DNA of 64,000 nucleotides from Candidatus Thorarchaeota archaeon (GTDB lineage: Archaea; Asgardarchaeota; Thorarchaeia; Thorarchaeales; Thorarchaeaceae), in assembly GCA_029855935.1 (NCBI GenBank), contig JAGSHN010000019.1, forward strand, positions 32,001 to 96,000. Reading direction: 5' to 3'. Each line of letters starts with the position of its first letter. Positions within the stretch are counted from its first letter, which is position 1. The notes under the pieces were generated by a model. That model ran no database searches, had not been told where the DNA came from, and was given only the letters and a program-made list of their open reading frames with translations. Shown piece by piece: positions 4,507 through 15,510 of this stretch. Both the position numbers and the translations under genes were made by a program.

Positions 4507-5622
4507 CTACTGCAATGCCTGTGTCAGAACATCTTCCACCATGAATTCTCTGTCGGTACGCCACCTGTGGTTCTCCTCGTCCAAGGTCTGTGACCATATG
4601 TAGAATATGTAGCTGTGTGTGTAGTCCATCAGGAACACGGACATCTCAGTCAGCAGCGAGTAGAGGCTCGACAGCAGTGGCGATAGATGTGATGGCTGGA
4701 GTCGGACGAACCAAAAGAGCTCATCTCCACTGACACGCATTGTGGACTCGAAGGGTATGGGACGGGCCTGCAGTCTTGACCAGAGGTCGAGCAGTTCGTC
4801 TGGATCGCCTCTCCCGACGACTATGATGTTGCTGTAGATGTCGAACGCCTCTGGGTCAAAGGCGACCCTATATCCCTCGATGCACTCCTCTCTGAGCATC
4901 CTGAGTCGTCGACTGAAGGTGGTCGGCGTGATGTCTACTCCGCGCCGTCGCAGAGCGTCTATGATCTCCACATTCTTCCGTCTGGCGTTCTTCATCAGCT
5001 CATAGAGTATCTCAAGATCCCTCTGAGTCAGCCACTCTAGTGCAACGCCCGAATCGCCCGTGGGGCTCTCCTGAGGCGGGGCCATCACGTCGGTCTGGAA
5101 CCAGTTCGCCCAGTCAAAATCCCATCTCATCGACTCTGGGTCCCAGCCATCTATTTTCAGCGACGTGTAGATTGTGGGTTCGTTGGCCACCACGAACTGC
5201 GCCCTCTCGACGACTCCAGCCTGCTGCAGTAGTCTCACAAGCCCTCTGACCTGTGATGAGGTGCCGAGGGGCACTCTGAACTGCAGGAACACGCCATTGA
5301 ATGCGCCATAGCATCTGCATCTGTACGCGGTGTACGGATGCACCCTGGCAACTCTCTCAAGGACTGTCGTTGCCTCCGGCCCAGTCGCCTCCAGCAGAAC
5401 GTCGGTGGCCTCAAGACCGAGGTTGTGATTGTTCAGTAACGGGTTGACCGTGAAGTATCTCTTCCCTCCCTCCTCACCACTGAGAAGACGTAGCCTCCTC
5501 AGTGCTGTCGGCTTGGAGACACCAATCCTGGTTGCAAGTTCCTCGATTGTCGCCAGGGGCCTCTCCTGGAGGGCAATCAGTAGCGAGAGATACTGCGCCG
5601 TCAGGCCAGCCACCAGACTCAC
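4507..5622 (-). CDS. Tandem wHTH Lrp/AsnC-like transcriptional regulator (copy A)
   Basis: Two HTH regions (ATIEELATRIGVSKPTALRRL; DLEILYELMKNAR..ITPTTFSRRL); paralog of 12341..13531; GTG at 5622 behind a G-rich SD. Confidence 0.8.
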   Translation of the reverse strand: MSLVAGLTAQYLSLLIALQERPLATIEELATRIGVSKPTALRRLRLLSGEEGGKRYFTVNPLLNNHNLGLEATDVLLEATGPEATTVLERVARVHPYTAYRCRCYGAFNGVFLQFRVPLGTSSQVRGLVRLLQQAGVVERAQFVVANEPTIYTSLKIDGWDPESMRWDFDWANWFQTDVMAPPQESPTGDSGVALEWLTQRDLEILYELMKNARRKNVEIIDALRRRGVDITPTTFSRRLRMLREECIEGYRVAFDPEAFDIYSNIIVVGRGDPDELLDLWSRLQARPIPFESTMRVSGDELFWFVRLQPSHLSPLLSSLYSLLTEMSVFLMDYTHSYIFYIWSQTLDEENHRWRTDREFMVEDVLTQALQ

Positions 5623-5657
5623 GGCTCCCCCCTTCACTTGGTCGACTCAGAGAGGGC

Positions 5658-6152
5658 CTATGGTGTGGCGGTGAACGAGAGCACCTCTGCAAGCGGAGGC
5701 CCTGGATTACCCTCTGTCGGCGGGTCGAATGCGAGTGAGTCGGCTGACCAGTATGTCGTCTGCCCGCACTCTATCTCGGTGTAGACGAGAAACCTGTACC
5801 AGCCGGGTTCGGTGATGACATTATACCATCCGACGTTGAGATGTACGTGCCTGTAGGTCCCCACAATTGTCACAATGAAGAGATAGGCATCACCAGACGG
5901 TAGGACAAGATAACAGTAGACATCCGTGAGCGTGAAACACGCCGGGCAATAGACCTCGATGAACAGGCCTGTCACGGCGTCGTCCCTCACACCATCTGCA
6001 TCGAGGTCAACATACTCTCCTCTCTCTGCAATCACGTTGAACCACGTGGCCCTGCAGGAGCGTCTTCCCGCAGCACTGGCTGGGGTAACGAACGACACAG
6101 ATGCCACGACAATCATGACGAGGAGCAACAGCCTTGTTGTGCGACTAATCAT
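5658..6152 (-). CDS. Secreted hypothetical protein with DxDxDG loop and FDPP motif (copy A)
   Basis: Signal peptide ending PASA; YVDLDADGVRDD, LPSG, TEPGWY, FDPPTEG; paralog of 13592..14101. Confidence 0.8.
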   Translation of the reverse strand: MISRTTRLLLLVMIVVASVSFVTPASAAGRRSCRATWFNVIAERGEYVDLDADGVRDDAVTGLFIEVYCPACFTLTDVYCYLVLPSGDAYLFIVTIVGTYRHVHLNVGWYNVITEPGWYRFLVYTEIECGQTTYWSADSLAFDPPTEGNPGPPLAEVLSFTATP

Positions 6153-6267
6153 ATGAGCAGTCACTCCGTACCACCGAATGGACGGCGACTTTTATCTCTA
6201 TTGACCCTCTCTGGCCCGCCAGCCATTGGCTCATACGTTGACTGGGCCGCTGTGTATAGTTCCCTGG

Positions 6268-7014
6268 TCAGCTCTCCATTCTCCGCGCCACGACAACAAT
6301 TGACCGATGCTGTCTCTCGTCCAGCTCCCTCCCGTCATAGCCACCGTTCCAGCTGGTGGGGGCGAGGCCCGCCTCTCTCAGTGCGGCGTTCAGTATCTCT
6401 CTGTTGAGATGCAACACACTCTGAGTGCGGACTGTGGTGGCCCACTCATCGTCCTGTCCGATGATCCCCGTCATCACAAGAGTGGACCTGCTCTCTGCTG
6501 GCCAGTGTTCGAAGAATCTGGCAAACACGACTGTACGACCGTCGGACATCTGGCCGTGGGTGAGCGGGAAGAACCTGAATCCGCTCTCCAGCACCTCCCG
6601 AGAGTTCAGAACTTGGATCACGACCCTGCCGTTCGCTGCAAGGACGCTGGCCATTCCCCGCAGTGTATCAATCACCTCGGCGCGACTAGAGAGTAGTGAC
6701 AACGAATTGCCCAGGCATATCACGAGGTCTGCCCTGACGTCCATCTCTCCGACATTCCGCATGTCCATCACATTGAACTCTAGGTCGACATTGTGTTCAG
6801 AGGCAAGTTGACGGGCCTGCTCAATCATCTGTGAACTGATGTCGATGCCCACGCCACGATGGCCGTGTTCTGCAAGAGCAACAAGGTGTCTCCCGCTTCC
6901 GCAGGCGATATCGAGGACGAGGCCGTCCTCCGGCGGGAGATGCTGTAACAGAAACGGTATCTCGCGTCCGAGTCGTGCCTCCCAGTCAATAGCCCGGTCG
7001 TAGGCCAGTGCCAC
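6268..7014 (-). CDS. Class I SAM-dependent methyltransferase (glycine/sarcosine N-methyltransferase-like)
   Basis: LDIACGSGRH motif I, GIDIS, ICLGNSL. Confidence 0.88.
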   Translation of the reverse strand: MALAYDRAIDWEARLGREIPFLLQHLPPEDGLVLDIACGSGRHLVALAEHGHRGVGIDISSQMIEQARQLASEHNVDLEFNVMDMRNVGEMDVRADLVICLGNSLSLLSSRAEVIDTLRGMASVLAANGRVVIQVLNSREVLESGFRFFPLTHGQMSDGRTVVFARFFEHWPAESRSTLVMTGIIGQDDEWATTVRTQSVLHLNREILNAALREAGLAPTSWNGGYDGRELDERQHRSIVVVARRMES

Positions 7015-7080
7015 CTCATCAAACTCTGTCAGTGTGGTCCTCCTCCAATTCCGAACTGGTCAGGGCGAGCGTCTGGCCGC

Positions 7081-7662
7081 CTATACCTTGCCCTGTTTCC
7101 AGTCGCCATGGGTCCAGAGTATCCTGTGATACTCTCTCATCAGCACATCTGGCCAGCTCCCTACAGACCTCAGAAAGATGTTGGCCGTCAGCGATACGTG
7201 GTCATCGCGTGCAAAGACCTCTAACTCGGGGCACTCGAACAGCGGTGATATGTCAATTCTCCGCAACTCGTTATGGTCGAGACGTATCTCACGTAGATGT
7301 GGACAGTCAGCCAGTGGTGTCAGGTCTATGCTCCGCAGCCTGTTGTGGCTCAGGTCAATCTCCCTGAGGGCCTTGCATCGTGACAGCGGTGTGAGATCGA
7401 GTTCCGTGATGCGGTTGTACTGCAGCCACAGGCTCTCCAGCTGAGGGCAATATACGAGGGGCCACAGGTCGATGCGTGCAATATCTCTCAGTTGGAGGTT
7501 GACCCTAGTGTCGTCCCGCCCGATGAGAATCTGAGTCTCAAGACCGCTCGTGGTGACGTACCTCACACTCACACTACGGTCGTCCTGCTCGACCCCGGCA
7601 ACCAGCCGCCCCTCTGGGTCGCTGTCATTCCTCTCGTGTTCTTGTTGATTGATGCGCATCAA
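7081..7662 (-). CDS. Leucine-rich repeat protein
   Basis: 22-aa LRRs LxxLxLxxNxI/LxxIDLxPLxxC. Confidence 0.85.
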   Translation of the reverse strand: MMRINQQEHERNDSDPEGRLVAGVEQDDRSVSVRYVTTSGLETQILIGRDDTRVNLQLRDIARIDLWPLVYCPQLESLWLQYNRITELDLTPLSRCKALREIDLSHNRLRSIDLTPLADCPHLREIRLDHNELRRIDISPLFECPELEVFARDDHVSLTANIFLRSVGSWPDVLMREYHRILWTHGDWKQGKV

Positions 7663-7778
7663 CTCATAGTCTGGACAAACAGTATATCAATCCTGTCAAT
7701 CCCACTCTCAGGCTGTGTGAGCGCAACTGGGGCTCTGATGATCGTGCGGTGCCTGAGCATATCCTCTCTTCGCGTCCC

Positions 7779-8438
7779 TCACATCAGACTCATTCTCTCT
7801 CTCAGGTACTCGAGACCCCTCTCCAGAGTGAACAGGCGTCTGAAGTCTCCTCTCTCCTCAGCCTCTCTGATCTCCTCGATGAAGGCCTTCTCGACCTTCT
7901 CACAGAGTCTGAATCTCAACGTCTCATCGACGATATGTGCGTTGTCGGGGCTTGGATACAGGTCTGCAAGCTCAGCATAGATTCTATTCTTGATGTTCTC
8001 GACAACACGCTGTGGGTCCATCTCCTCCGGAGTGCGTGTCCAGTGGACAGCACGCCTGCGTCGCAGTCCGTCGAGTGGACGTGGTCTGGGTCCGCTGGTT
8101 CCAATCTCGTAGTCGGCACGGATGACGACTGCAGGATCGACCTCTATTGTGGAGAGGTGTGGACAGGAGAACAGCGGGGTGACGTCAAGCTCTGTCAGAG
8201 GGTTATTGATGAGATTGAGACTTGACAGTCTCTTGCATCGGATTAGTGGCCACAGGTCAATCTGAGTCAGGCTGTTGTTGGACAGGTCTAGTGACCTCAG
8301 TTCCGTGCACCTAGCTAGGGGTGCAAGATCGATACTGGTGATGTGACGGTATGAGAGGTCGATGGCTGTGATCTCAGGCTCCAGACGGAGGATGTCCTCG
8401 CCGCGCCTCGTCCTGTACCTGAGCAGAATTGTTTCCAC
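7779..8438 (-). CDS. Leucine-rich repeat protein with C-terminal helical region
   Basis: LRSLDLSNNSLTQIDLWPLIRC repeats; same family as the neighbouring gene. Confidence 0.85.
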   Translation of the reverse strand: METILLRYRTRRGEDILRLEPEITAIDLSYRHITSIDLAPLARCTELRSLDLSNNSLTQIDLWPLIRCKRLSSLNLINNPLTELDVTPLFSCPHLSTIEVDPAVVIRADYEIGTSGPRPRPLDGLRRRRAVHWTRTPEEMDPQRVVENIKNRIYAELADLYPSPDNAHIVDETLRFRLCEKVEKAFIEEIREAEERGDFRRLFTLERGLEYLRERMSLM

Positions 8439-8460
8439 GGTCCTCGGCCTCCTCTTGGTA

Positions 8461-8520
8461 GATGAATCAATTGATAATTATATCGTCTAATGTTAAGACA
8501 CACTCTATAATAATCTATTG
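8461..8520 (-). promoter_or_regulatory. AT-rich promoter region of the LRR pair
   Basis: Strongly AT-rich island; palindromes ATCAATTGAT (8466-8475) and ATAATTAT (8474-8481). Confidence 0.45.
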
Positions 8521-8607
8521 CAATGTGCTGGACGACGCGGACAACGAGACGCACCACACAGTGACGTAGCCGATATTGAACAAGTGCTCAGCACGAGGGT
8601 CTCGGTC

Positions 8608-9612
8608 TCAGTCGGTGCCATCTTGCCTACTCTGGGCGGACCTGGCATAATAGGGCGACATGCTGAGCATTCTTCTTCTGATGTACCAACGTACGAGCGG
8701 AATGAACCACCGACGCCACCCAAGCGATCTCCGCAGGTCCTCCAGATAGTCATCGTAGGTCCTTGTCTGATATTGTAGCAGTGCCTGTGACTCTGTGGTG
8801 TCCATAAAGTCAGTATGATAGTAGTCCTCGTCTCTATCAGGCACTATGAATGCCTCTTCCGGTAGCATGCCAATTCCCATCGCCTCAAGAGCACGCTTGA
8901 TGAACTCCCTGTACGTCATCCGGCACCGTTCACCTCCTGCTATGAGGAGGACCCTGCCGACTACGTCTGCTGTAACTGCATTGGTGATGGCGAGACCCAC
9001 ATCACGGGGGTGCACGAACTCGACTCGCTGACTCAGTGGCACGTGAAACATCTCACTGCGCCTCGACCGGGCGAGCCAGTCATAGTCCACTGCTGGGGCC
9101 GCGCTCAGCCTCAGGACGACCCACTGTAGACCACTCTCCCTGACTAGCCGTTCAGCCTCAATCTTTGTTTCAGAGTAGACATCGACGGCCACCTGTGGAT
9201 CAGTCGCCGTCTTCGGTGGTCCTCTCCCAGTGGAGTGGCCATAGGTTGCGACTGAACTTGTGTATATGAGCCTAGGGGGTTGTTCGAGATCTCGTGCCGC
9301 CTCAACGACATTTCTGGTGCCTCCAACGTTGACAGCCCTAGTCAGTTCTGGTTGCTCCTCCGACGCTGGGGGCAGGACTGCAGCAAGATGCACTATACAG
9401 TCGACATCTCTGACTGCATCTCTCACGTCCTCAGGCGATCTGATGTCGCCCCATATCACATCCACTCTGTCCAGATGCCTTAGGCGGCGGGCACGGCGCT
9501 CATTGGTCTCTGTCCGGAGATCGAAGGCCATCACGGTGTTTCCCTGCTCAAGCAGCTGCGGGACAGTGTTCTGTCCGATGTTTCCCAGTGCACCAGTCAC
9601 CAGTACGCGCAT
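8608..9612 (-). CDS. NAD-dependent epimerase/dehydratase (extended SDR)
   Basis: VTGALGNIG, HLAA, TSS, YSETK (YxxxK). Confidence 0.9.
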   Translation of the reverse strand: MRVLVTGALGNIGQNTVPQLLEQGNTVMAFDLRTETNERRARRLRHLDRVDVIWGDIRSPEDVRDAVRDVDCIVHLAAVLPPASEEQPELTRAVNVGGTRNVVEAARDLEQPPRLIYTSSVATYGHSTGRGPPKTATDPQVAVDVYSETKIEAERLVRESGLQWVVLRLSAAPAVDYDWLARSRRSEMFHVPLSQRVEFVHPRDVGLAITNAVTADVVGRVLLIAGGERCRMTYREFIKRALEAMGIGMLPEEAFIVPDRDEDYYHTDFMDTTESQALLQYQTRTYDDYLEDLRRSLGWRRWFIPLVRWYIRRRMLSMSPYYARSAQSRQDGTD

Positions 9613-9631
9613 ACCTACACCGAGCCCAGTC

Positions 9632-9690
9632 TACTAATTAGTATTTCGGCGACGAAATATTGGATATCGAACAAAACGAAATGCTATTAT
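9632..9690. promoter_or_regulatory. Divergent promoter with putative MarR operator
   Basis: TACTAATTAGTA palindrome 9632-9643; TATTTCG-N4-CGAAATA 9642-9659; second CGAAAT half-site at about 9677. Confidence 0.6.
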
Positions 9691-9745
9691 CCGGGCCTGT
9701 GCCACTTGTTGTTCGCACCCCTTGCGATGGACGAGGTAGCGTCTG

Positions 9746-10180
9746 ATGGCGGATGATCGTGAGCGTCTCCTCTACGAGTTTGTGGGACTTCTCAGAGAGC
9801 TCAGCAGGATGAGATCGTTCTTTGTGATTGAGGGTCTCACCCTTGAGGAGTTCATGGTCCTAGATGAGGTCTCCGAGTCGGGGCCCTGTGTGATGCGTGA
9901 CATTGCCACGGCACTGTCTCTTCCCCCAAGCACCGCCACGGGGATAGTGGATCGCCTCGTGGAGAAGGACTATGTCCGGAGACGTCACTCCGACCGTGAC
10001 CGCCGAAGGGTGATCGTCGAACTGACGCCAGCAGGACTCTCCGCATACAACAAGTTTCGGGACAGAGCTCTGGCTCAGGTGGAGGACTCTGTGAGACATC
10101 TGAGCAATGGCGACCTGCAGGCACTAATGAAGATAATACGCAAGATACTGGACCGTGCTGGAGAGCGGATGCAGTCCTGA
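9746..10180 (+). CDS. MarR family transcriptional regulator
   Basis: LPPSTATGIVDRLVEKDYVRR..DRR.VIVELT. Confidence 0.92.
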   Translation: MADDRERLLYEFVGLLRELSRMRSFFVIEGLTLEEFMVLDEVSESGPCVMRDIATALSLPPSTATGIVDRLVEKDYVRRRHSDRDRRRVIVELTPAGLSAYNKFRDRALAQVEDSVRHLSNGDLQALMKIIRKILDRAGERMQS

Positions 10181-10327
10181 TGGGAGCCTTGGCCAAGGTT
10201 GAGGACGGACATTTTCTCCGACGAGATGTGTTCGTCTATCTGCCAGGACAGTCCGTACCAGAGAAAGAAAATGAGGATGGAGGCGATGAGTCTGAGACTC
10301 ACCGCTCCATATACTGGGAGTCCTGTT

Positions 10328-12145
10328 CTACGGTACAGTCAGGGTCTCGGATGTCTCCACGTTGTCCGCGGAGTTATAGGTGTATCCCGTCTTGACGAGA
10401 TTGGTCACAGTGGATGTGTACGTGCCGGTCCCGCCACGCTGATACACGAACGTCACAGTTCCATCCGTCCCCGTGTCTGCGTTACCAGTGGCATGCGAGC
10501 CATCAGGTAGTGTCATATCCAAGTAGACGGTCACGCCCGAGAGTGGCGAGCCAGTTCCGTCGTGGACTGTCACCTTGGTGTAGACATCGTACCAGACGAA
10601 GATCCAGAAGCCGCCCTTCTGATACCACATGTCGATGCTGGCGACATGCATTGTGTTGGCAGATCCTTCCTCTGTGGTCGCAGAGGCTGGATCAGACTTC
10701 TCACCCTCGTTGCCTGAGGTGTCGACCGCTGAGACCTCGTAGGTGTAGGTTGTGCCTGGGGACAGACCTGAGTCGGTGTAGGTCGTGTCCGTAGTCTCGG
10801 CAATCTTGGTGCCGTCACGGTAGACGTTGTAGTGGTCGAGGTCCGACTCGGTGTTGGCATCCCACGTCAGCTTGATCTGGGTTGACGACAGGGTCGTTGC
10901 GGTCAGGCCGGTCACCTTGGCTGGTGGGGTCGTGTCAGGGGGTGTGCTGCCACCGCCCGCAGCGTCCACTGCAGCTGGGGCGTTGACCTCACCATATCCG
11001 TACCGTTCGTCCCAGCCGGAAGGTCCGAGGTCGGTGGATGTCGTGTGGAGTATGTCCCTCACCTGGGCGGGCGTCAGGTCATGATTGGCACTCAGTATCA
11101 GTGCAACGACGCCAGCGACCATCGGACAGGCCATTGAGGTACCGCTCATCGTGTCATAGTTCTTGCTGTAACCGTACCACCAGCTGGTGAGTGTCACCGA
11201 GTAGGTGGGCATCGTGCTATATATGTCGACACCGGGAGCGACAACCTCCTGCTCAGGGCCGTAGTTGCTGAAGCTTGCGAGCTGATGGTCCTTGTCAATT
11301 GCTCCCACTGCGATGGCGTTATCGTATGCTGCAGGATAGGATATCTGGTTCTTGCCGTCATTGCCTGATGCTGCAACGACAACTATGCCGGCATTGTATG
11401 CGCGGTTGACCGCATCATTGAATGCCGAGTCGTAGCTACCACCGCCAAGGCTCATAGAGATGACGTCCATCCCGTTGTCTATCGCCCAGTCTATGCCGGC
11501 GATGATGTCACTTGTGTAGCCTGAGCCGTAGGCATCGAGTACACGGACAGCATAGATCGAGGCGTGGGGTGCAACTCCTATGACTCCCTCACCATTGTCC
11601 TCTGCCGCGACAATTCCCGCGCAGTGCGTGCCATGGCCATTTTCGTCCTTCGGGTCGTTGTCATCATCGACAAAGTCGTGACCGCCCGCGTAGACATCGT
11701 CAAGGTCGGGGTGCGTGTAGTCAATTCCGGTGTCCAGTATGGCGACCTTCACGCCACTACCATCCGGATTCCCTTGGACCACGTCGACAGCATCCTCGGC
11801 TCCGCCCCAGACCTGTTCGGCGTCCACATCGTCGACACCCCAGTCCAGGGTGTCTTGGAACAGACTGACTCTGTGGTCAATCTGGATTGACGACACGAAC
11901 CACGCATGTTCGAGTGTATGGTACAGCGCCATGGGGATTCGTGCGGCCATACCGTTCAGCACACTGTATTCTTGATACACATCTATTCCCGCTATGTTGA
12001 CCTCTACTCCCGGTTTGAACAGAATGACCGCGTTGACATAGCGATCAGTCTGTGGCGACCGATTAATCGCGACGAGCGCGTTGGAGAAAATGAGTACTGA
12101 GATCACCACAGCGGAGAACAGAACCGCTCTCTCTCTTCTCCTCAT
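10328..12145 (-). CDS. Secreted S8 subtilisin-like serine protease with FN3 and Ig-like C-terminal domains
   Basis: Signal peptide, I9-like propeptide; catalytic ILDTG, HGTHCAG, GTSMACP; FN3 region PAKVTGL..YEVSAVD. Confidence 0.95.
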   Translation of the reverse strand: MRRRERAVLFSAVVISVLIFSNALVAINRSPQTDRYVNAVILFKPGVEVNIAGIDVYQEYSVLNGMAARIPMALYHTLEHAWFVSSIQIDHRVSLFQDTLDWGVDDVDAEQVWGGAEDAVDVVQGNPDGSGVKVAILDTGIDYTHPDLDDVYAGGHDFVDDDNDPKDENGHGTHCAGIVAAEDNGEGVIGVAPHASIYAVRVLDAYGSGYTSDIIAGIDWAIDNGMDVISMSLGGGSYDSAFNDAVNRAYNAGIVVVAASGNDGKNQISYPAAYDNAIAVGAIDKDHQLASFSNYGPEQEVVAPGVDIYSTMPTYSVTLTSWWYGYSKNYDTMSGTSMACPMVAGVVALILSANHDLTPAQVRDILHTTSTDLGPSGWDERYGYGEVNAPAAVDAAGGGSTPPDTTPPAKVTGLTATTLSSTQIKLTWDANTESDLDHYNVYRDGTKIAETTDTTYTDSGLSPGTTYTYEVSAVDTSGNEGEKSDPASATTEEGSANTMHVASIDMWYQKGGFWIFVWYDVYTKVTVHDGTGSPLSGVTVYLDMTLPDGSHATGNADTGTDGTVTFVYQRGGTGTYTSTVTNLVKTGYTYNSADNVETSETLTVP

Positions 12146-12157
12146 CTACATCACCAG

Positions 12158-12240
12158 TGTCCTGTGCTGCGATCAGGACATTTCCAATCTCTCATCCAAT
12201 AGATGAGATGATGCAGTAATGACTAATCTGATATTTAAAG
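12158..12240 (-). promoter_or_regulatory. Subtilisin promoter with inverted repeats
   Basis: TATA-like CTTTAAAT (minus, about 12233-12240); TCTCATC-N5-GATGAGA 12190-12208; TGTCCTG-N9-CAGGACA 12158-12180. Confidence 0.5.
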
Positions 12241-12340
12241 ACACTGGCAAAAACTGCACGCGTCTCGAACGTCGCACAGACGCACCCAGTTGTGTTCTTA
12301 GTGAGTGGGTCAGCTCGCTGGTGGAGTCGCCCGTTCAATA

Positions 12341-13531
12341 TCAGCGCTCCATATCGCGGAGCGGGGTCTCGACCACATACGACCGGTCGTTTCTCCAGCC
12401 ACTCTCTGGGTCATAGTTCTCGTGATAGAAGAAGTACGTGTAAGAAGAGTCGAGCTGAAGCTGATAGACGTGGACATCTCTACAGTGCTCCCAGAAGAAC
12501 TCGGAGATCTCAGGAGCGAATGATGGCGGTGTCATCGAGTAGAGCAGGAAGTCGTTGCCGTTGGTCACGCCCTTCATCTCGAAGGGTATGGCGCCGCTGT
12601 CGATGAACCAGTGGAAGGTCCGGGCATTGAGTTCTCCCTCTGTGTCGAACGTGCCGATGATCAGTTGCGGATACGTGAGGTCAAAGATTGTCCGGTCGTA
12701 GTAGAGGATGTCCTTAGGAGCAAAGAGCCTTCTGATTCGTTCGACGCGTCGTGAGATGGTCGTGGCATCTCTGTCATAGACCTCGGCCAGTCGAGTGAAG
12801 TTCGGATGGGCGTTGATTGTCAGTTCGCGCAACAGCTGTAGGTCGAGCAGGTCTATGGACTCAGGTGGGGTCGGCCTGTCCTCGGGTGGGCTCTTGTCAG
12901 GACAGCGCTCAAGGAACTCACTCCAGATGGACTCGACACGACTCAGACGAATCCCTATGGCTGACTTCCTCCCGTACTCGATCTCCCATCTATTGGTCTT
13001 GATGTCCCAGCGCTGGAGGTCGGCACCACGACCTGCAACGAATCTCGACTCGATGACTCTATAGTCCTCGCACGCGCCTCTCTCAACAAGAGCGTTGTAC
13101 AGGTCACGTATCATGATGTCTGTCTGAGGCGGGATGTCAAACTGGGCGTACAACACAGCCTCGTCTCCAAAGGCGACGACACGATAATGGGTGTGTGGAT
13201 GGACATCGCAGAGTCGTTTGAGCCTGTTCAGCTGGTCCCTTGTCTGTATCCCTAGGAAGATAATATGGTGCCTAAGCAGGCCGAGGCTACTGGGGACGTA
13301 GGCGGCCTCGACCTCCGTCTGGAGACGCTCTCCCAGTAGCGGATCGGTTATCACCCTGCTGGGACGTAGAACTCCTCTCTCACGCAGTTTCATCAGGCGG
13401 AGTCGGACTGTCTCTGGTGCGACACCCATCTTCCTTGCTATCTGTGTGTTGCTCAGTGAAGGTTCCTGTTCGAGGGCCAGCAGAATCTTGAGGTCCCTAC
13501 TATCAATGTGTGTCGACGTGGAGGCCACCAT
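12341..13531 (-). CDS. Tandem wHTH Lrp/AsnC-like transcriptional regulator (copy B)
   Basis: DLKILLAL..SNTQIARKMGVAPETVRLRL and LDLQLLRELTINA..DATTISRRV; HPHTHYR matches HPYTAYR of copy A. Confidence 0.82.
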   Translation of the reverse strand: MVASTSTHIDSRDLKILLALEQEPSLSNTQIARKMGVAPETVRLRLMKLRERGVLRPSRVITDPLLGERLQTEVEAAYVPSSLGLLRHHIIFLGIQTRDQLNRLKRLCDVHPHTHYRVVAFGDEAVLYAQFDIPPQTDIMIRDLYNALVERGACEDYRVIESRFVAGRGADLQRWDIKTNRWEIEYGRKSAIGIRLSRVESIWSEFLERCPDKSPPEDRPTPPESIDLLDLQLLRELTINAHPNFTRLAEVYDRDATTISRRVERIRRLFAPKDILYYDRTIFDLTYPQLIIGTFDTEGELNARTFHWFIDSGAIPFEMKGVTNGNDFLLYSMTPPSFAPEISEFFWEHCRDVHVYQLQLDSSYTYFFYHENYDPESGWRNDRSYVVETPLRDMER

Positions 13532-13591
13532 TGCTCTGTCTTCCTGTCAGATGTTTCATCGGGCTTTGGAGGGGACGTTGTATTGTGCTCC

Positions 13592-14101
13592 TCAACGGAC
13601 CCCGAATGTCGGCTTTCCGCCCTCACTTCCGCCTGGCGGGTCGAACACGTAGTGTTTGTAGTCATATGGGGTCCCAGGTGTGTAGAGTATGGCGTGGACA
13701 TAGACGGTGTAGTCGCCGGACTCTGTGGCGTGATTGAAGAACAGATTCTCTATCGTCACTGTGTCATAGAATGCGAGCACGTAGACTATGTACGAGTAAT
13801 TGGTCCCCGAGGGTAGCTGTAGGGTGATCAGGTAAGCGAACCGGCAGTACGGGAAGAGGCCCTCGATGTCGAACCGTGTGATCACGAGGACATCATCGGA
13901 GAACGAGTCGTGGTCGAGGTCAGTGTAGGTCGCATATGTTATCGTCACAGTGATAGTCGGCTCGGTGCTGTCAGAGGAGTCGTCGGTGGAGGCCGCATAC
14001 GCGGGCTGGACTCCAAGCAGCGCGAAGACCGTGAGCACTAGCAGGCCCGCCACGAGCGCTCTTGATTTCATCCCTCTCGGCGGGGTAAGCATCTCTCTCA
14101 T
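13592..14101 (-). CDS. Secreted hypothetical protein with DxDxD loop and FDPP motif (copy B)
   Basis: Signal peptide ending PAYA; YTDLDHDSFSDD, LPSG, TESGDY, FDPPGG. Confidence 0.8.
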   Translation of the reverse strand: MREMLTPPRGMKSRALVAGLLVLTVFALLGVQPAYAASTDDSSDSTEPTITVTITYATYTDLDHDSFSDDVLVITRFDIEGLFPYCRFAYLITLQLPSGTNYSYIVYVLAFYDTVTIENLFFNHATESGDYTVYVHAILYTPGTPYDYKHYVFDPPGGSEGGKPTFGVR

Positions 14102-14253
14102 CTCTTGCCTCCTCTCAAGTAGGCTGCACGCTGGTATGGCAAGATGGCTATATATTGGTTTTGGGAGAAACTGCGTTGCAGCTGGCAGTGCCGTACTACT
14201 GAGGGACCGTCAGCCGTGCTTGTCGAGGAGCGGAGGGGCGGACAGTAGCCGCC

Positions 14254-15510
14254 TCATGTCCCCTCGGCATATGCTCTGGCGTAGGCCTCCTGTTCCTCCG
14301 TCCACTCATCTATCTCTATGCCCATCGTGTGGAGCTTCATCAGGGCGGTCTGTTGGTCCAGCTCGTGCGGGAAGTCGTAGACCCCAGGTTCCAGCTCCTT
14401 GCCGTGTCGGGAGAGCCAGAGCATCGCATTGAGCTGCCCTGCAAAGCTGAGGTCCATTACCTCACTGGGATGTCCGCTTGCTGCAACAAGATTCACTAAT
14501 CGGCCCTCTGCCAGCAGATAGATGGTCCTGCCGTCCTTGAGCGTGAACTCCTCAAGAGCGTGACGCACCCTCTTTCGCGAGACACTCATTGCCACCAGAT
14601 CGGGCTCGTTGATCTCCACATTGTAGTGGCCAGCATTACCGAGCACGGCGCCGTCCTTCATCAGCTTGATGTGCTCGCCTGTGATGACATCCTTCATCCC
14701 GGTCGCCGTGATGAACAGGTCGCCCTCGCGTGCAGCGTCCCTCATTGGCATCACACGGTAGCCATCCATTCGTGCCTGCAGAGCTCTGACCGGGTCGACC
14801 TCCGTCACGATGACATCAGCGCCCAGCCCTCTTGCACGCATCGCGAGGCCTCTGCCGCAGTAGCCATAGCCCGCAATCACGACGGTCTTTCCTGCAATCA
14901 GTATCTCTGAGGCCCGGAGGACCCCATCAAACGTGCTCTGTCCCGTCCCGTAGACGTTGTCGAACATGTGCTTTGTGTCAGCGTCGTTGACGGCCATTAT
15001 CGGATACTTCAGTACGCCGTCCTCGGCCATCGCTCTGACCCTGATCACACCGGTCGTGGTCTCCTCGGAGCCGCCGTACAGATTCGGTATGAGATTCTGA
15101 TGCTTGTTGTGCAGTGTGAAGATCAGGTCGGCGCCATCGTCAAGCGTCAGGTGCGGCTCTATCTTCAGAGTCTGGTCGATGCACCAGTAGTACTCCTCGG
15201 TGGTGAGGCCGTTCCACGCAAAGACCGAGACATCGTTTGCAGCAAGGGCGGCGGCGACCCTGTCATTCGTCGACAGGGGATTGCATCCACACCAAGCCAC
15301 CTGCGCGCCCAGCTCTCGGAGGGTCTCCACCAGCACTGCTGTCTCCTTTGTCACGTGAAGACAGCCCGAGATTCTGAAGTCCCTCAGCGGCTTCTCCTTC
15401 GAGTACTTCTTCCGCAGATGCATCAGCACTGGCATATGCTTCTCAGCGTAGTCAATCAGCCTCCGGCCCTCTTCGGCCAGTGAGATGTCCTTCACCTTGT
15501 AGTCCGTCAT
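14254..15510 (-). CDS. ahcY: Adenosylhomocysteinase
   Basis: GCLHVT, LDDGADL, EETTTG, KHMFDN.YGTGQS, GYGYCGRG, GHPSEVMDLSF. Confidence 0.97.
   Translation of the reverse strand: MTDYKVKDISLAEEGRRLIDYAEKHMPVLMHLRKKYSKEKPLRDFRISGCLHVTKETAVLVETLRELGAQVAWCGCNPLSTNDRVAAALAANDVSVFAWNGLTTEEYYWCIDQTLKIEPHLTLDDGADLIFTLHNKHQNLIPNLYGGSEETTTGVIRVRAMAEDGVLKYPIMAVNDADTKHMFDNVYGTGQSTFDGVLRASEILIAGKTVVIAGYGYCGRGLAMRARGLGADVIVTEVDPVRALQARMDGYRVMPMRDAAREGDLFITATGMKDVITGEHIKLMKDGAVLGNAGHYNVEINEPDLVAMSVSRKRVRHALEEFTLKDGRTIYLLAEGRLVNLVAASGHPSEVMDLSFAGQLNAMLWLSRHGKELEPGVYDFPHELDQQTALMKLHTMGIEIDEWTEEQEAYARAYAEGT

Follow-up and report, generated by a model that had tools for sequence, protein, structure and literature searches.

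An exported Ig-like protein paired with a tandem Lrp/AsnC-type regulator: a protease-linked module of Asgard archaea with a predicted ligand-receptor interface

The two-gene cassette and its inheritance

A stretch of 64,000 nucleotides of contig JAGSHN010000019.1 from a Candidatus Thorarchaeota archaeon (hereafter, the window) carries twice, on its minus strand, a pair of genes that encode a small exported protein and, directly after it, a regulator made of two fused Lrp/AsnC-like units. We find that this module is real, widespread in Asgard archaea, uncharacterised and linked to proteases, and that it has a specific predicted ligand-receptor interface. A sequence-only reading of the window had proposed that the exported protein, or a peptide cut from it, is sensed by the regulator encoded next to it, and knew of no named system for the pair; targeted literature searches likewise gave no publication describing the module.

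The first gene of cassette B (13592-14101, minus strand) encodes P0004, a small secreted protein of 169 residues with the type-B tail GGSEGGKPTFGVR. The second (12341-13531, minus strand) encodes regulator B, P0002, a tandem Lrp/AsnC-type protein of 396 residues laid out as HTH1-RAM1-linker-HTH2-RAM2 (HTH, helix-turn-helix). Cassette A comprises the gene for small protein A, P0003 (5658-6164, minus strand; 168 residues from the GTG at 6164 or 164 residues from the ATG at 6152), with the type-A tail FDPPTEGNPGPPLAEVLSFTATP, and the gene for the tandem Lrp/AsnC-type regulator A, P0001 (4507-5637, minus strand; 376 residues, with an alternative GTG at 5622). All four reading frames are present at the minus-strand positions first claimed for them, as are the gaps of about 35 nucleotides (nt) in A and about 60 nt in B between small gene and regulator. 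The two pairs are true paralogs: the regulators are 23% identical (E 4e-20) and the small proteins 32% identical (E 7e-12). Downstream of regulator B lies the gene for a secreted subtilisin of 605 residues (10328-12145, minus strand), the cognate type-B protease partner, which has a signal peptide, an N-terminal pro-region, a Peptidase_S8 domain (129-385), an fn3 domain (410-489) and a C-terminal beta domain. No protease directly adjoins cassette A (4507-6164).

The source genome (2.97 Mb, 97% complete) contains four small-protein genes and four full-length regulator genes, and in all four cases the small gene lies immediately 5' of the regulator on the same strand. The same adjacency on one strand was found at 78 of 79 distinct loci across many Asgard genera (the four of the source genome, 29 with 1.5-kb flanks and 46 with 6-kb flanks), with a median gap of 45 nt, and is much more frequent than chance would give. 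At the sole exception, L032, the contig ends about 300 nt past the small gene; wherever downstream sequence was readable among the 79 loci, no small-protein gene without an adjoining regulator was found. By a profile search, 102 of 400 genomes of the phylum encode the small protein, in as many as nine copies, and by a strict profile 113 of the 400 encode the regulator. Both families occur in the same taxonomic families (coded f1, f2, f7-f13 and f21), both are found in 0 of 135 genomes of f22, and in the family of the source genome their copy numbers stand almost 1:1.

An exhaustive profile search of 1.84 billion representatives returned 335 small-protein clusters at 50% identity, nearly all of them stand-alone proteins of 150-180 residues. 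As told by protein names alone, the named homologs all belong to Asgard archaea (Thor-, Loki-, Hod- and Promethearchaeota, Kariarchaeaceae, Harpocratesius and Lokiarchaeum), and they are annotated as hypothetical or as 'exported protein of unknown function'. Two cassettes are found in the cultured Candidatus Lokiarchaeum ossiferum B-35, one of them being NEF87_002510/NEF87_002511. The module is Asgard-specific; its obligate core is the two-gene operon, and a secreted protease gene is a frequent third member.

The trees of the two families (64 pairs) are congruent: none of 2000 permutations attained their Mantel r of 0.70. They have 34 of 61 splits in common, compared with 0.3 under label shuffling, and 27 of the 35 well-supported splits of the regulator tree recur in the small-protein tree. 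This congruence shows that the cassette was inherited and duplicated as a unit. Gene adjacency and tree congruence across Asgard genomes were among the checks named beforehand by the sequence-only reading, which had taken the lasting pairing of strongly diverged copies for a sign of functional coupling; on both counts it was borne out, the pair being an obligate and co-diversifying unit.

The regulator and its exported partner

The product of the second gene is a cytoplasmic protein of 365-410 residues, a fused HTH-RAM-HTH-RAM Lrp/AsnC pseudo-dimer with two winged HTH and two RAM-like domains. Its first HTH is of the AsnC type (PF13404, E 2.7e-12; PF13412, E 1.3e-12), the second matches Lrp and ST1022, and both match archaeal Lrp regulators in the PDB (3e-9 and 7e-8). 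The AlphaFold2 (AF2) model, with a predicted local distance difference test score (pLDDT) of 93.2 and a predicted TM-score (pTM) of 0.90, contains the HTH-RAM unit twice. Whole Lrp/AsnC chains (HTH plus RAM) align with it structurally at TM 0.6-0.69, and single Lrp/AsnC proteins align to either half of the regulator; no sequence match to PF01037 (AsnC_trans_reg) was found in the regulators, nor any Pfam match to tetratricopeptide repeats (TPR). Residues H111, P112, R117, Q130, P134, W182, S260, F283, P316 and W379 are invariant in a wider alignment.

The likeness to the Lrp/AsnC (feast/famine) proteins, such as the archaeal FL11/PH1519 and ST1022, extends beyond the winged HTH and RAM-like domains to a predicted ligand site in or between the latter, to a target that is often divergently transcribed and to a candidate operator, described below, in the form of a TTGNA...TGCAA-like dyad near the TATA box, which we take to resemble the Ss-LrpB box. 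The cassette regulator differs in joining two units in one chain, in RAM domains diverged beyond recognition by PF01037, in a Trp-rich extension (WD..RW, WR.DR) after each RAM, and in a predicted ligand that is a peptide of about 15 residues, not an amino acid.

The best full-length Foldseek match to the regulator is the siroheme decarboxylase NirDL (4ch7/4czc; E 2e-8), with a TM-score of 0.40-0.51 and a root-mean-square deviation (rmsd) of 14 Å. NirDL ranks first because, alone among the matches, it aligns over the whole regulator chain, and such a match, the sole one of this extent in the PDB, is what a chain of two fused Lrp-like units would be expected to give; NirDL is, however, an enzyme, without specific sequence similarity to the regulator and with a different domain arrangement. 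By sequence the regulator HTHs are nearer to DNA-binding Lrp proteins than to NirDL (3e-9 versus 5e-7), and neither P0001 nor P0002 matched the NCBIfam models of AhbA and AhbB at E up to 1, or a siroheme-type RAM model. We therefore read the regulator as a transcription factor.

The window encodes a third double Lrp/AsnC protein, P0005 (15550-16539, plus strand; 329 residues), whose RAM domain is canonical by PF01037 (E 3e-15) and which also has LysM/LrpA-like matches. No small secreted protein precedes it, and it therefore belongs to a different, ordinary branch of fused Lrp regulators.

The product of the first gene starts with a basic n-region, a hydrophobic core and a small-x-small cleavage site. 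Such a signal-peptide-like N-terminus is present in 116-125 of 145 family representatives, as called by a heuristic of our own and not by SignalP. None of the 145 has a hydrophobic run at the C-terminus, which rules out a C-terminal sorting signal or membrane anchor. The protein is thus predicted to be exported by the Sec route and to have about 130 residues when mature, in agreement with the secreted, unanchored partner of the sequence-only reading (125 of 145 with the signal, by the same heuristic).

In P0004 the signal peptide (about residues 1-36) is followed by an eight-strand Ig-like sandwich (49-168) that includes a DxDxDxxxDD loop (61-70) and the FDPP motif (153-156). In the confident AF2 model (pLDDT 86.7) a Gly/Pro-rich linker joins seven core strands (49-153) to a short final strand (165-168). 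The motifs listed earlier for both families hold as invariant in the wider alignments, where the small protein keeps Y59, D61, D63, D65, D69, D70, L96-P97-S98-G99, E127, G129, Y131, F153-D154-P155-P156 and P164. Its most invariant feature is FDPP, found in 143 of the 145 representatives; the tail that follows the Asp-Pro has a median length of 18 residues and is made up of an invariant and a type-specific part. FDPR replaces FDPP in the Lokiarchaeial copies L106 (Candidatus Harpocratesius repetitus) and L109 (Candidatus Lokiarchaeum ossiferum), and of the two cassettes of L. ossiferum B-35 it is the second that has this motif; the second proline is lost and the Asp-Pro bond kept. L106 also has an unusually long gap, 347 nt, between small gene and regulator.

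Since consecutive strands of the sandwich alternate in direction, nearly all invariant residues fall in loops at one of its ends, a clustering that follows from strand alternation. The acidic loop, LPSG, ExGxY and FDPP would all share this end, where we infer one conserved acidic site that is bordered by the Asp154-Pro155 bond. Judging by its motif, this site probably binds calcium. Of the 'Ig-like fold plus Ca loop' suggested for the protein at the outset, the fold fits the model, and calcium binding comes from the motif alone.

The small protein matches no family in Pfam or NCBIfam, and fold searches with it returned only generic Ig/FnIII-like domains, at Z 9-10.7 to many unrelated families. 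The top initial Foldseek match, the B. subtilis proteinase inhibitor Ipi (3isy; E 1.6e-3), is not a specific one: its VIA Z of 9.0 places it at rank 26 among 101 chains with Z >=8, one of more than 100 equally good Ig-like matches, and the small protein has no Pfam match. The 'DNRLRE domain' of the UniRef label on an L. ossiferum homolog found no support at E up to 10. The outlier of the exhaustive search, P0154 (public, 4885 residues), is a bacterial-type Ig_7 (CHU_C-associated) repeat protein that matches only profile positions 88-127, in 18 stretches; it was set aside as uninformative, and its match hints at a very distant link between the cassette sandwich and Ig_7-type domains.

Protease partners and candidate operators

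The source genome has nine S8 genes. Two of its four cassettes adjoin one S8 gene each, and no other S8 gene of the genome is closer to either of these than they are to one another. A catalytic S8 enzyme is encoded within 6 kb at 34 of 64 loci, compared with about 0.04 per such interval by chance (9 S8 genes per 2.97 Mb). At 13 of the 64 loci, including eight of the nine of type D, a divergent gene beside the cassette encodes a member of one BLAST cluster of signal-peptide proteins, and both members of this cluster that were scanned match Peptidase_C14 (caspase-like). One or the other protease type is found at about 44 of the 64 loci, so the secreted subtilisin first noticed beside copy B generalises to about two thirds of cassettes.

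The partner proteases belong to three S8 subfamilies or to C14, and the type of the tail predicts the type of the protease, each cassette subfamily having a protease subfamily of its own. Type B, which includes the cassette at 12341-14101, has tails of the form ...GGSEGGKPTFGV[YHR] and a large S8 enzyme with fn3, encoded divergently 36-136 bp upstream or, as in the window, just downstream of the regulator. Type C (...GGSGDADPCGxLxV) goes with an S8 enzyme of about 350 residues without a pro-domain, type E (...TGSGxGDPHIxV) with a third S8 type encoded upstream on the same strand, and type D (...GPGLPxVxAYF) with the C14 enzyme. Type A, to which the cassette at 4507-6164 belongs, has a PGPPL-type tail and no protease.

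The type-D cassette of the source genome (contig C21:49907-51459, L008) is without the C14 gene that lies divergently upstream at eight of nine type-D loci elsewhere. Directly adjoining it is a gene for a Holliday-junction-resolvase-like endonuclease (PF10107), and at several other type-D loci PF10107 lies just beyond C14; comparison with L055, L061, L064 and L066 suggests that a protease gene may have been lost at L008. Six type-C loci (L043-L048) encode, between the small S8 gene and the cassette, a protein of about 452 residues with a C-terminal Big_1/CarboxypepD_reg-like domain, and several type-A cassettes (L052, L059, L102) have short Big_1-like open reading frames divergently upstream.

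A TATA box lies about 45 nt 5' of the start codon of the small gene. The cassette-B promoter (14102-14190, minus strand) contains the GC dyad CTGCAACGCAG (14181-14171), the box GCAGTTTCTCCCA and the TATA box AATATATA (14156-14149), past which come the half-sites TTGC (14142-14139) and TGCA (14128-14125) before the ATG at 14101. The promoter of the subtilisin gene (12146-12340, minus strand) has the same layout, with the box GTGCAGTTTTTGCCA at about 12259-12245, the TATA box TTTAAATAT at 12239-12231, and a TTAG-N7-TGCA dyad at 12226-12212 that has one mismatch to the type-B dyad.

In the footprint of type B, taken over twelve genomes, two TATA boxes point away from each other on either side of a short GC dyad, and a conserved box lies 5' of the TATA. 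A TTGN-N5-7-TGCA dyad, in the footprint of the form TTGY-N5-7-TGCA, stands just 3' of the TATA in 7 of 12 cassette promoters of type B (shuffles 0.2) and in 1 of 52 other promoters. When the pattern was applied to the separate type-B promoters on the S8 side, it recurred in 7 of 10, 5-8 nt past the TATA (shuffles 0.3, maximum 3). Type D has a different recurrent motif, TTTCTA[AG], in 5 of 9 promoters versus 3 of 55 others. We infer from these sequences paralog-specific candidate operators that a cassette has in common with its protease gene; they lie where a repressor acting at the start of transcription would be expected to bind.

Directly 5' of cassette B, on the same strand, is an S-adenosylhomocysteine-hydrolase-like gene (14254-15510, minus strand); cassette B keeps its own TATA box. 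Between cassettes A and B lie two neighbouring genes for leucine-rich-repeat proteins (7081-7662 and 7779-8438, minus strand), followed by an NAD-dependent epimerase-like gene (8608-9612) and a gene for a MarR-type regulator (9746-10180, plus strand).

A predicted regulator-tail complex and its interpretation

The complex of regulator B with residues 140-169 of P0004 was predicted together with three controls. The cognate pair scored 0.63 and the best of the controls 0.01; 58 of 80 solved complexes attain the mark set for this score, as do 2 of 110 mismatched pairs, counts that hold roughly, because our own alignments were used. Three runs agree in at least 77% of contacts. Confident contacts are made only by partner residues 155-169, the segment right after the invariant Asp154-Pro155, and none by the core strand 146-153. 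In the model the contacts on the regulator line the cleft between the two RAM domains, at T114, Y116 and Q130, which belong to the HPYTHYR and QF motifs, and also at Y366; the invariant P164 of the tail touches regulator residues 116, 118, 128 and 130. Taken over the whole family, the contact residues of the regulator are no more conserved than the others (entropy 2.30 versus 2.32 bits), and within cassette types they are more conserved (0.88 versus 1.12, permutation p 0.009). The predicted contact surface, like the tail, combines an invariant core with type-specific positions. This model supports binding by regulator B of the C-terminal 15 residues of its own exported partner. For the proposal that a released protein or peptide is sensed by the cognate regulator, the contact now has a prediction behind it (0.63 versus 0.01), and release and sensing stay conjectural steps.

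We give about an even chance to a feedback circuit that works like the bacterial RRNPP pheromone systems and is built of unrelated parts. In such a circuit the regulator would bind the candidate operators and control its own operon and the protease gene, and the C-terminal tail of the exported partner would set the activity of the regulator. The tail would be set free outside the cell, either when the cognate protease cuts it off or when the Asp-Pro bond beside the calcium site is cleaved, and an Opp/Dpp-type transporter of the genome would bring it in for binding by the regulator; the source genome encodes about nine SBP_bac_5 peptide-binding proteins of this type. The protease might be the output, the processing enzyme, or both, and the outcome would be a feedback loop responding to cell density or protease activity. 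Within the feedback model this extracellular route, from export through tail release and uptake to binding, is the most likely version, and we put it forward tentatively.

The closest bacterial parallels are the Bacillus circuits NprR-NprX with nprA and PlcR-PapR with NprB. NprR is activated by re-imported NprX (PMC3763537) and governs the expression of an extracellular protease (PMC7756075). Five features make up the RRNPP signature, namely a propeptide of 10-100 residues, its secretion by Sec, a receptor of 250-500 residues, peptide-binding TPRs in that receptor, and directly adjacent genes (PMC10075063). The cassette shares Sec export (by our heuristic), receptor length and adjacency with this signature; likewise, the candidate ligand is the C-terminal end of the precursor, a genome holds many diverged pairs, and an adjoining extracellular protease gene is the likely regulated output, processing enzyme, or both. 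In contrast to RRNPP, the cassette precursor of 150-180 residues has a folded Ig-like domain of about 120 residues with a calcium-type site and is no small propeptide, and the receptor is of the Lrp/AsnC HTH-RAM type, repeated twice, instead of a TPR protein. As these two defining features are missing, we regard the cassette not as a member of RRNPP but as an analogue, with an Lrp-fold receptor and a folded pro-protein. Moreover, the precursor gene comes first in the Asgard cassette, the hosts are Archaea and not Firmicutes, and the cassette is known from computation alone. For the release step, a precedent is the calcium-dependent self-processing module of FrpC (PMC7078468), an exported protein in which one particular Asp-Pro bond, next to a site that binds calcium, is cut with high specificity; its catalytic module, however, is C-terminal to the bond, whereas the folded domain of the cassette protein is N-terminal to it, and the two are not homologous. 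FrpC-like cleavage of the small protein is a conjecture by analogy.

Several points weigh against the feedback circuit, the evidence for which is wholly computational. The complex prediction covered one pair, the cognate B regulator and tail; the modelled partner was a 30-residue fragment taken out of its domain, and its pLDDT in the complex is 52-54. The AF2 monomer confidently docks the last strand (165-168) onto the protein's own sandwich, and for this reason the tail may have a structural role instead of being free. That the folded domain is so strongly conserved speaks for a task beyond delivering a peptide. No protease lies near about a third of the cassettes, the operator motifs were defined after viewing the data, and their recurrence is inflated by kinship among members of one type. 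Congruent trees would arise for any operon inherited whole and are by themselves no proof of a physical interaction. Finally, the ligands known for the RAM domains of Lrp/AsnC proteins are amino acids and not peptides.

The main rival is an ordinary local regulon, in which the regulator, like other feast/famine proteins, senses a small molecule, for example amino acids from proteolysis, and controls its own operon and the protease. The small protein would then be the chief cargo under its control and would act outside the cell, for instance in adhesion that depends on calcium, in forming a matrix or in binding a substrate, and the tail contact would be a modelling artefact. We regard this as a serious alternative, if an improbable one. 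The Lrp/AsnC-type HTH and RAM fold, the operator-like dyads common to cassette and protease promoters and the strand docked in the monomer suit it well; the invariant motifs of the conserved domain, all at one end, suggest a function of its own, and operon inheritance alone would explain both pairing and congruence. A local regulon does not, however, account for the wide margin by which the complex prediction beats its three controls, nor for contacts that fall exactly on the post-Asp-Pro tail and on family-specific invariant residues of the regulator, with type-specific residues among them. Paralogs that have diverged deeply (23-35% identity, with 4-9 copies in a genome) and yet remain strictly paired 1:1 are also more typical of specificity pairs than of a regulator that senses nutrients in general.

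The same predicted interface would serve a feedback that is coupled to secretion and stays in the cytoplasm, where the regulator would bind the tail of the unexported precursor and export, by removing the ligand, would report on secretion, with a logic like that of FlgM/sigma-28 or, in type III secretion, of ExsE. This scheme can do without cleavage and uptake, and both proteins come from one transcript with the median spacing given above. At cytoplasmic calcium, moreover, the site to which the tail is anchored at its start, being calcium-dependent, would presumably be unfolded and the tail free. This arrangement leaves unexplained, however, why tail type matches protease type and why a near-invariant Asp-Pro stands exactly at the start of the contacted segment, and it requires a hypothetical post-translational export window; we consider it unlikely.

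Less likely again is that the small protein is an accessory of the protease (an inhibitor, a folding helper, a product-like plug of the active site by way of its hydrophobic C-terminus, or a protease-matured subunit of a strand-exchange fibre) and that the regulator only controls expression. Protease linkage and the co-variation of tail and protease are in its favour, as are the type-C S8 enzymes without a pro-domain, the B. subtilis inhibitor among the fold matches, and the type-B tails, which mostly end in an aromatic residue with a hydrophobic one at the fourth-last position, ends that fit the P1/P4 preference of subtilisin. The obligate partner, however, is the regulator and not the protease (78 of 79 loci against about 44 of 64), the invariant surface is identical beside serine and cysteine proteases, and the inhibitor is one match among the many equal Ig-like ones described above. 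That the 'regulator' is a siroheme-decarboxylase-type enzyme (NirDL/AhbAB) and not a transcription factor, as its best full-length match might suggest, is ruled out for practical purposes by the poor superposition behind that first rank, the better match of its HTHs to Lrp, the lack of AhbA/AhbB matches and the existence of candidate operators.

Because the obligate partner is the regulator, the pairing has persisted through deep divergence and an interface is predicted, we favour a ligand-receptor relation between the two products. In its fullest form, which we offer as doubtful though attractive, the cassettes would be peptide-type autoinducer/receptor systems, the first to be genetically defined in Archaea. 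The exported product would be an Ig-like pro-protein loaded with calcium; the cognate protease, or self-cleavage triggered by calcium, would cut it at the Asp-Pro and so free a peptide that starts at Pro155. Once back in the cell, this peptide would occupy the inter-RAM cleft of its dedicated double-Lrp receptor, which would then switch the cassette and the protease, with four to nine mutually insulated channels per Asgard cell.

New in the present analysis are the linkage to proteases, the match of tail type to protease type and the shared type-B promoter dyad. Cell-cell signalling in archaea is poorly known; the literature that we found concerns signals resembling acyl-homoserine lactones (AHL) and LuxR-type receptors, and in it we found no peptide-receptor pair described. 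Experiments are feasible, since the cassette is present in the cultured L. ossiferum B-35. If the ligand-receptor relation is true, an Lrp-fold protein would act as a peptide receptor, the control of secreted proteases in peptide-fermenting Asgard organisms would be explained, and the module would offer an entry point to how the closest prokaryotic relatives of eukaryotes sense their neighbours or their own extracellular proteolysis.

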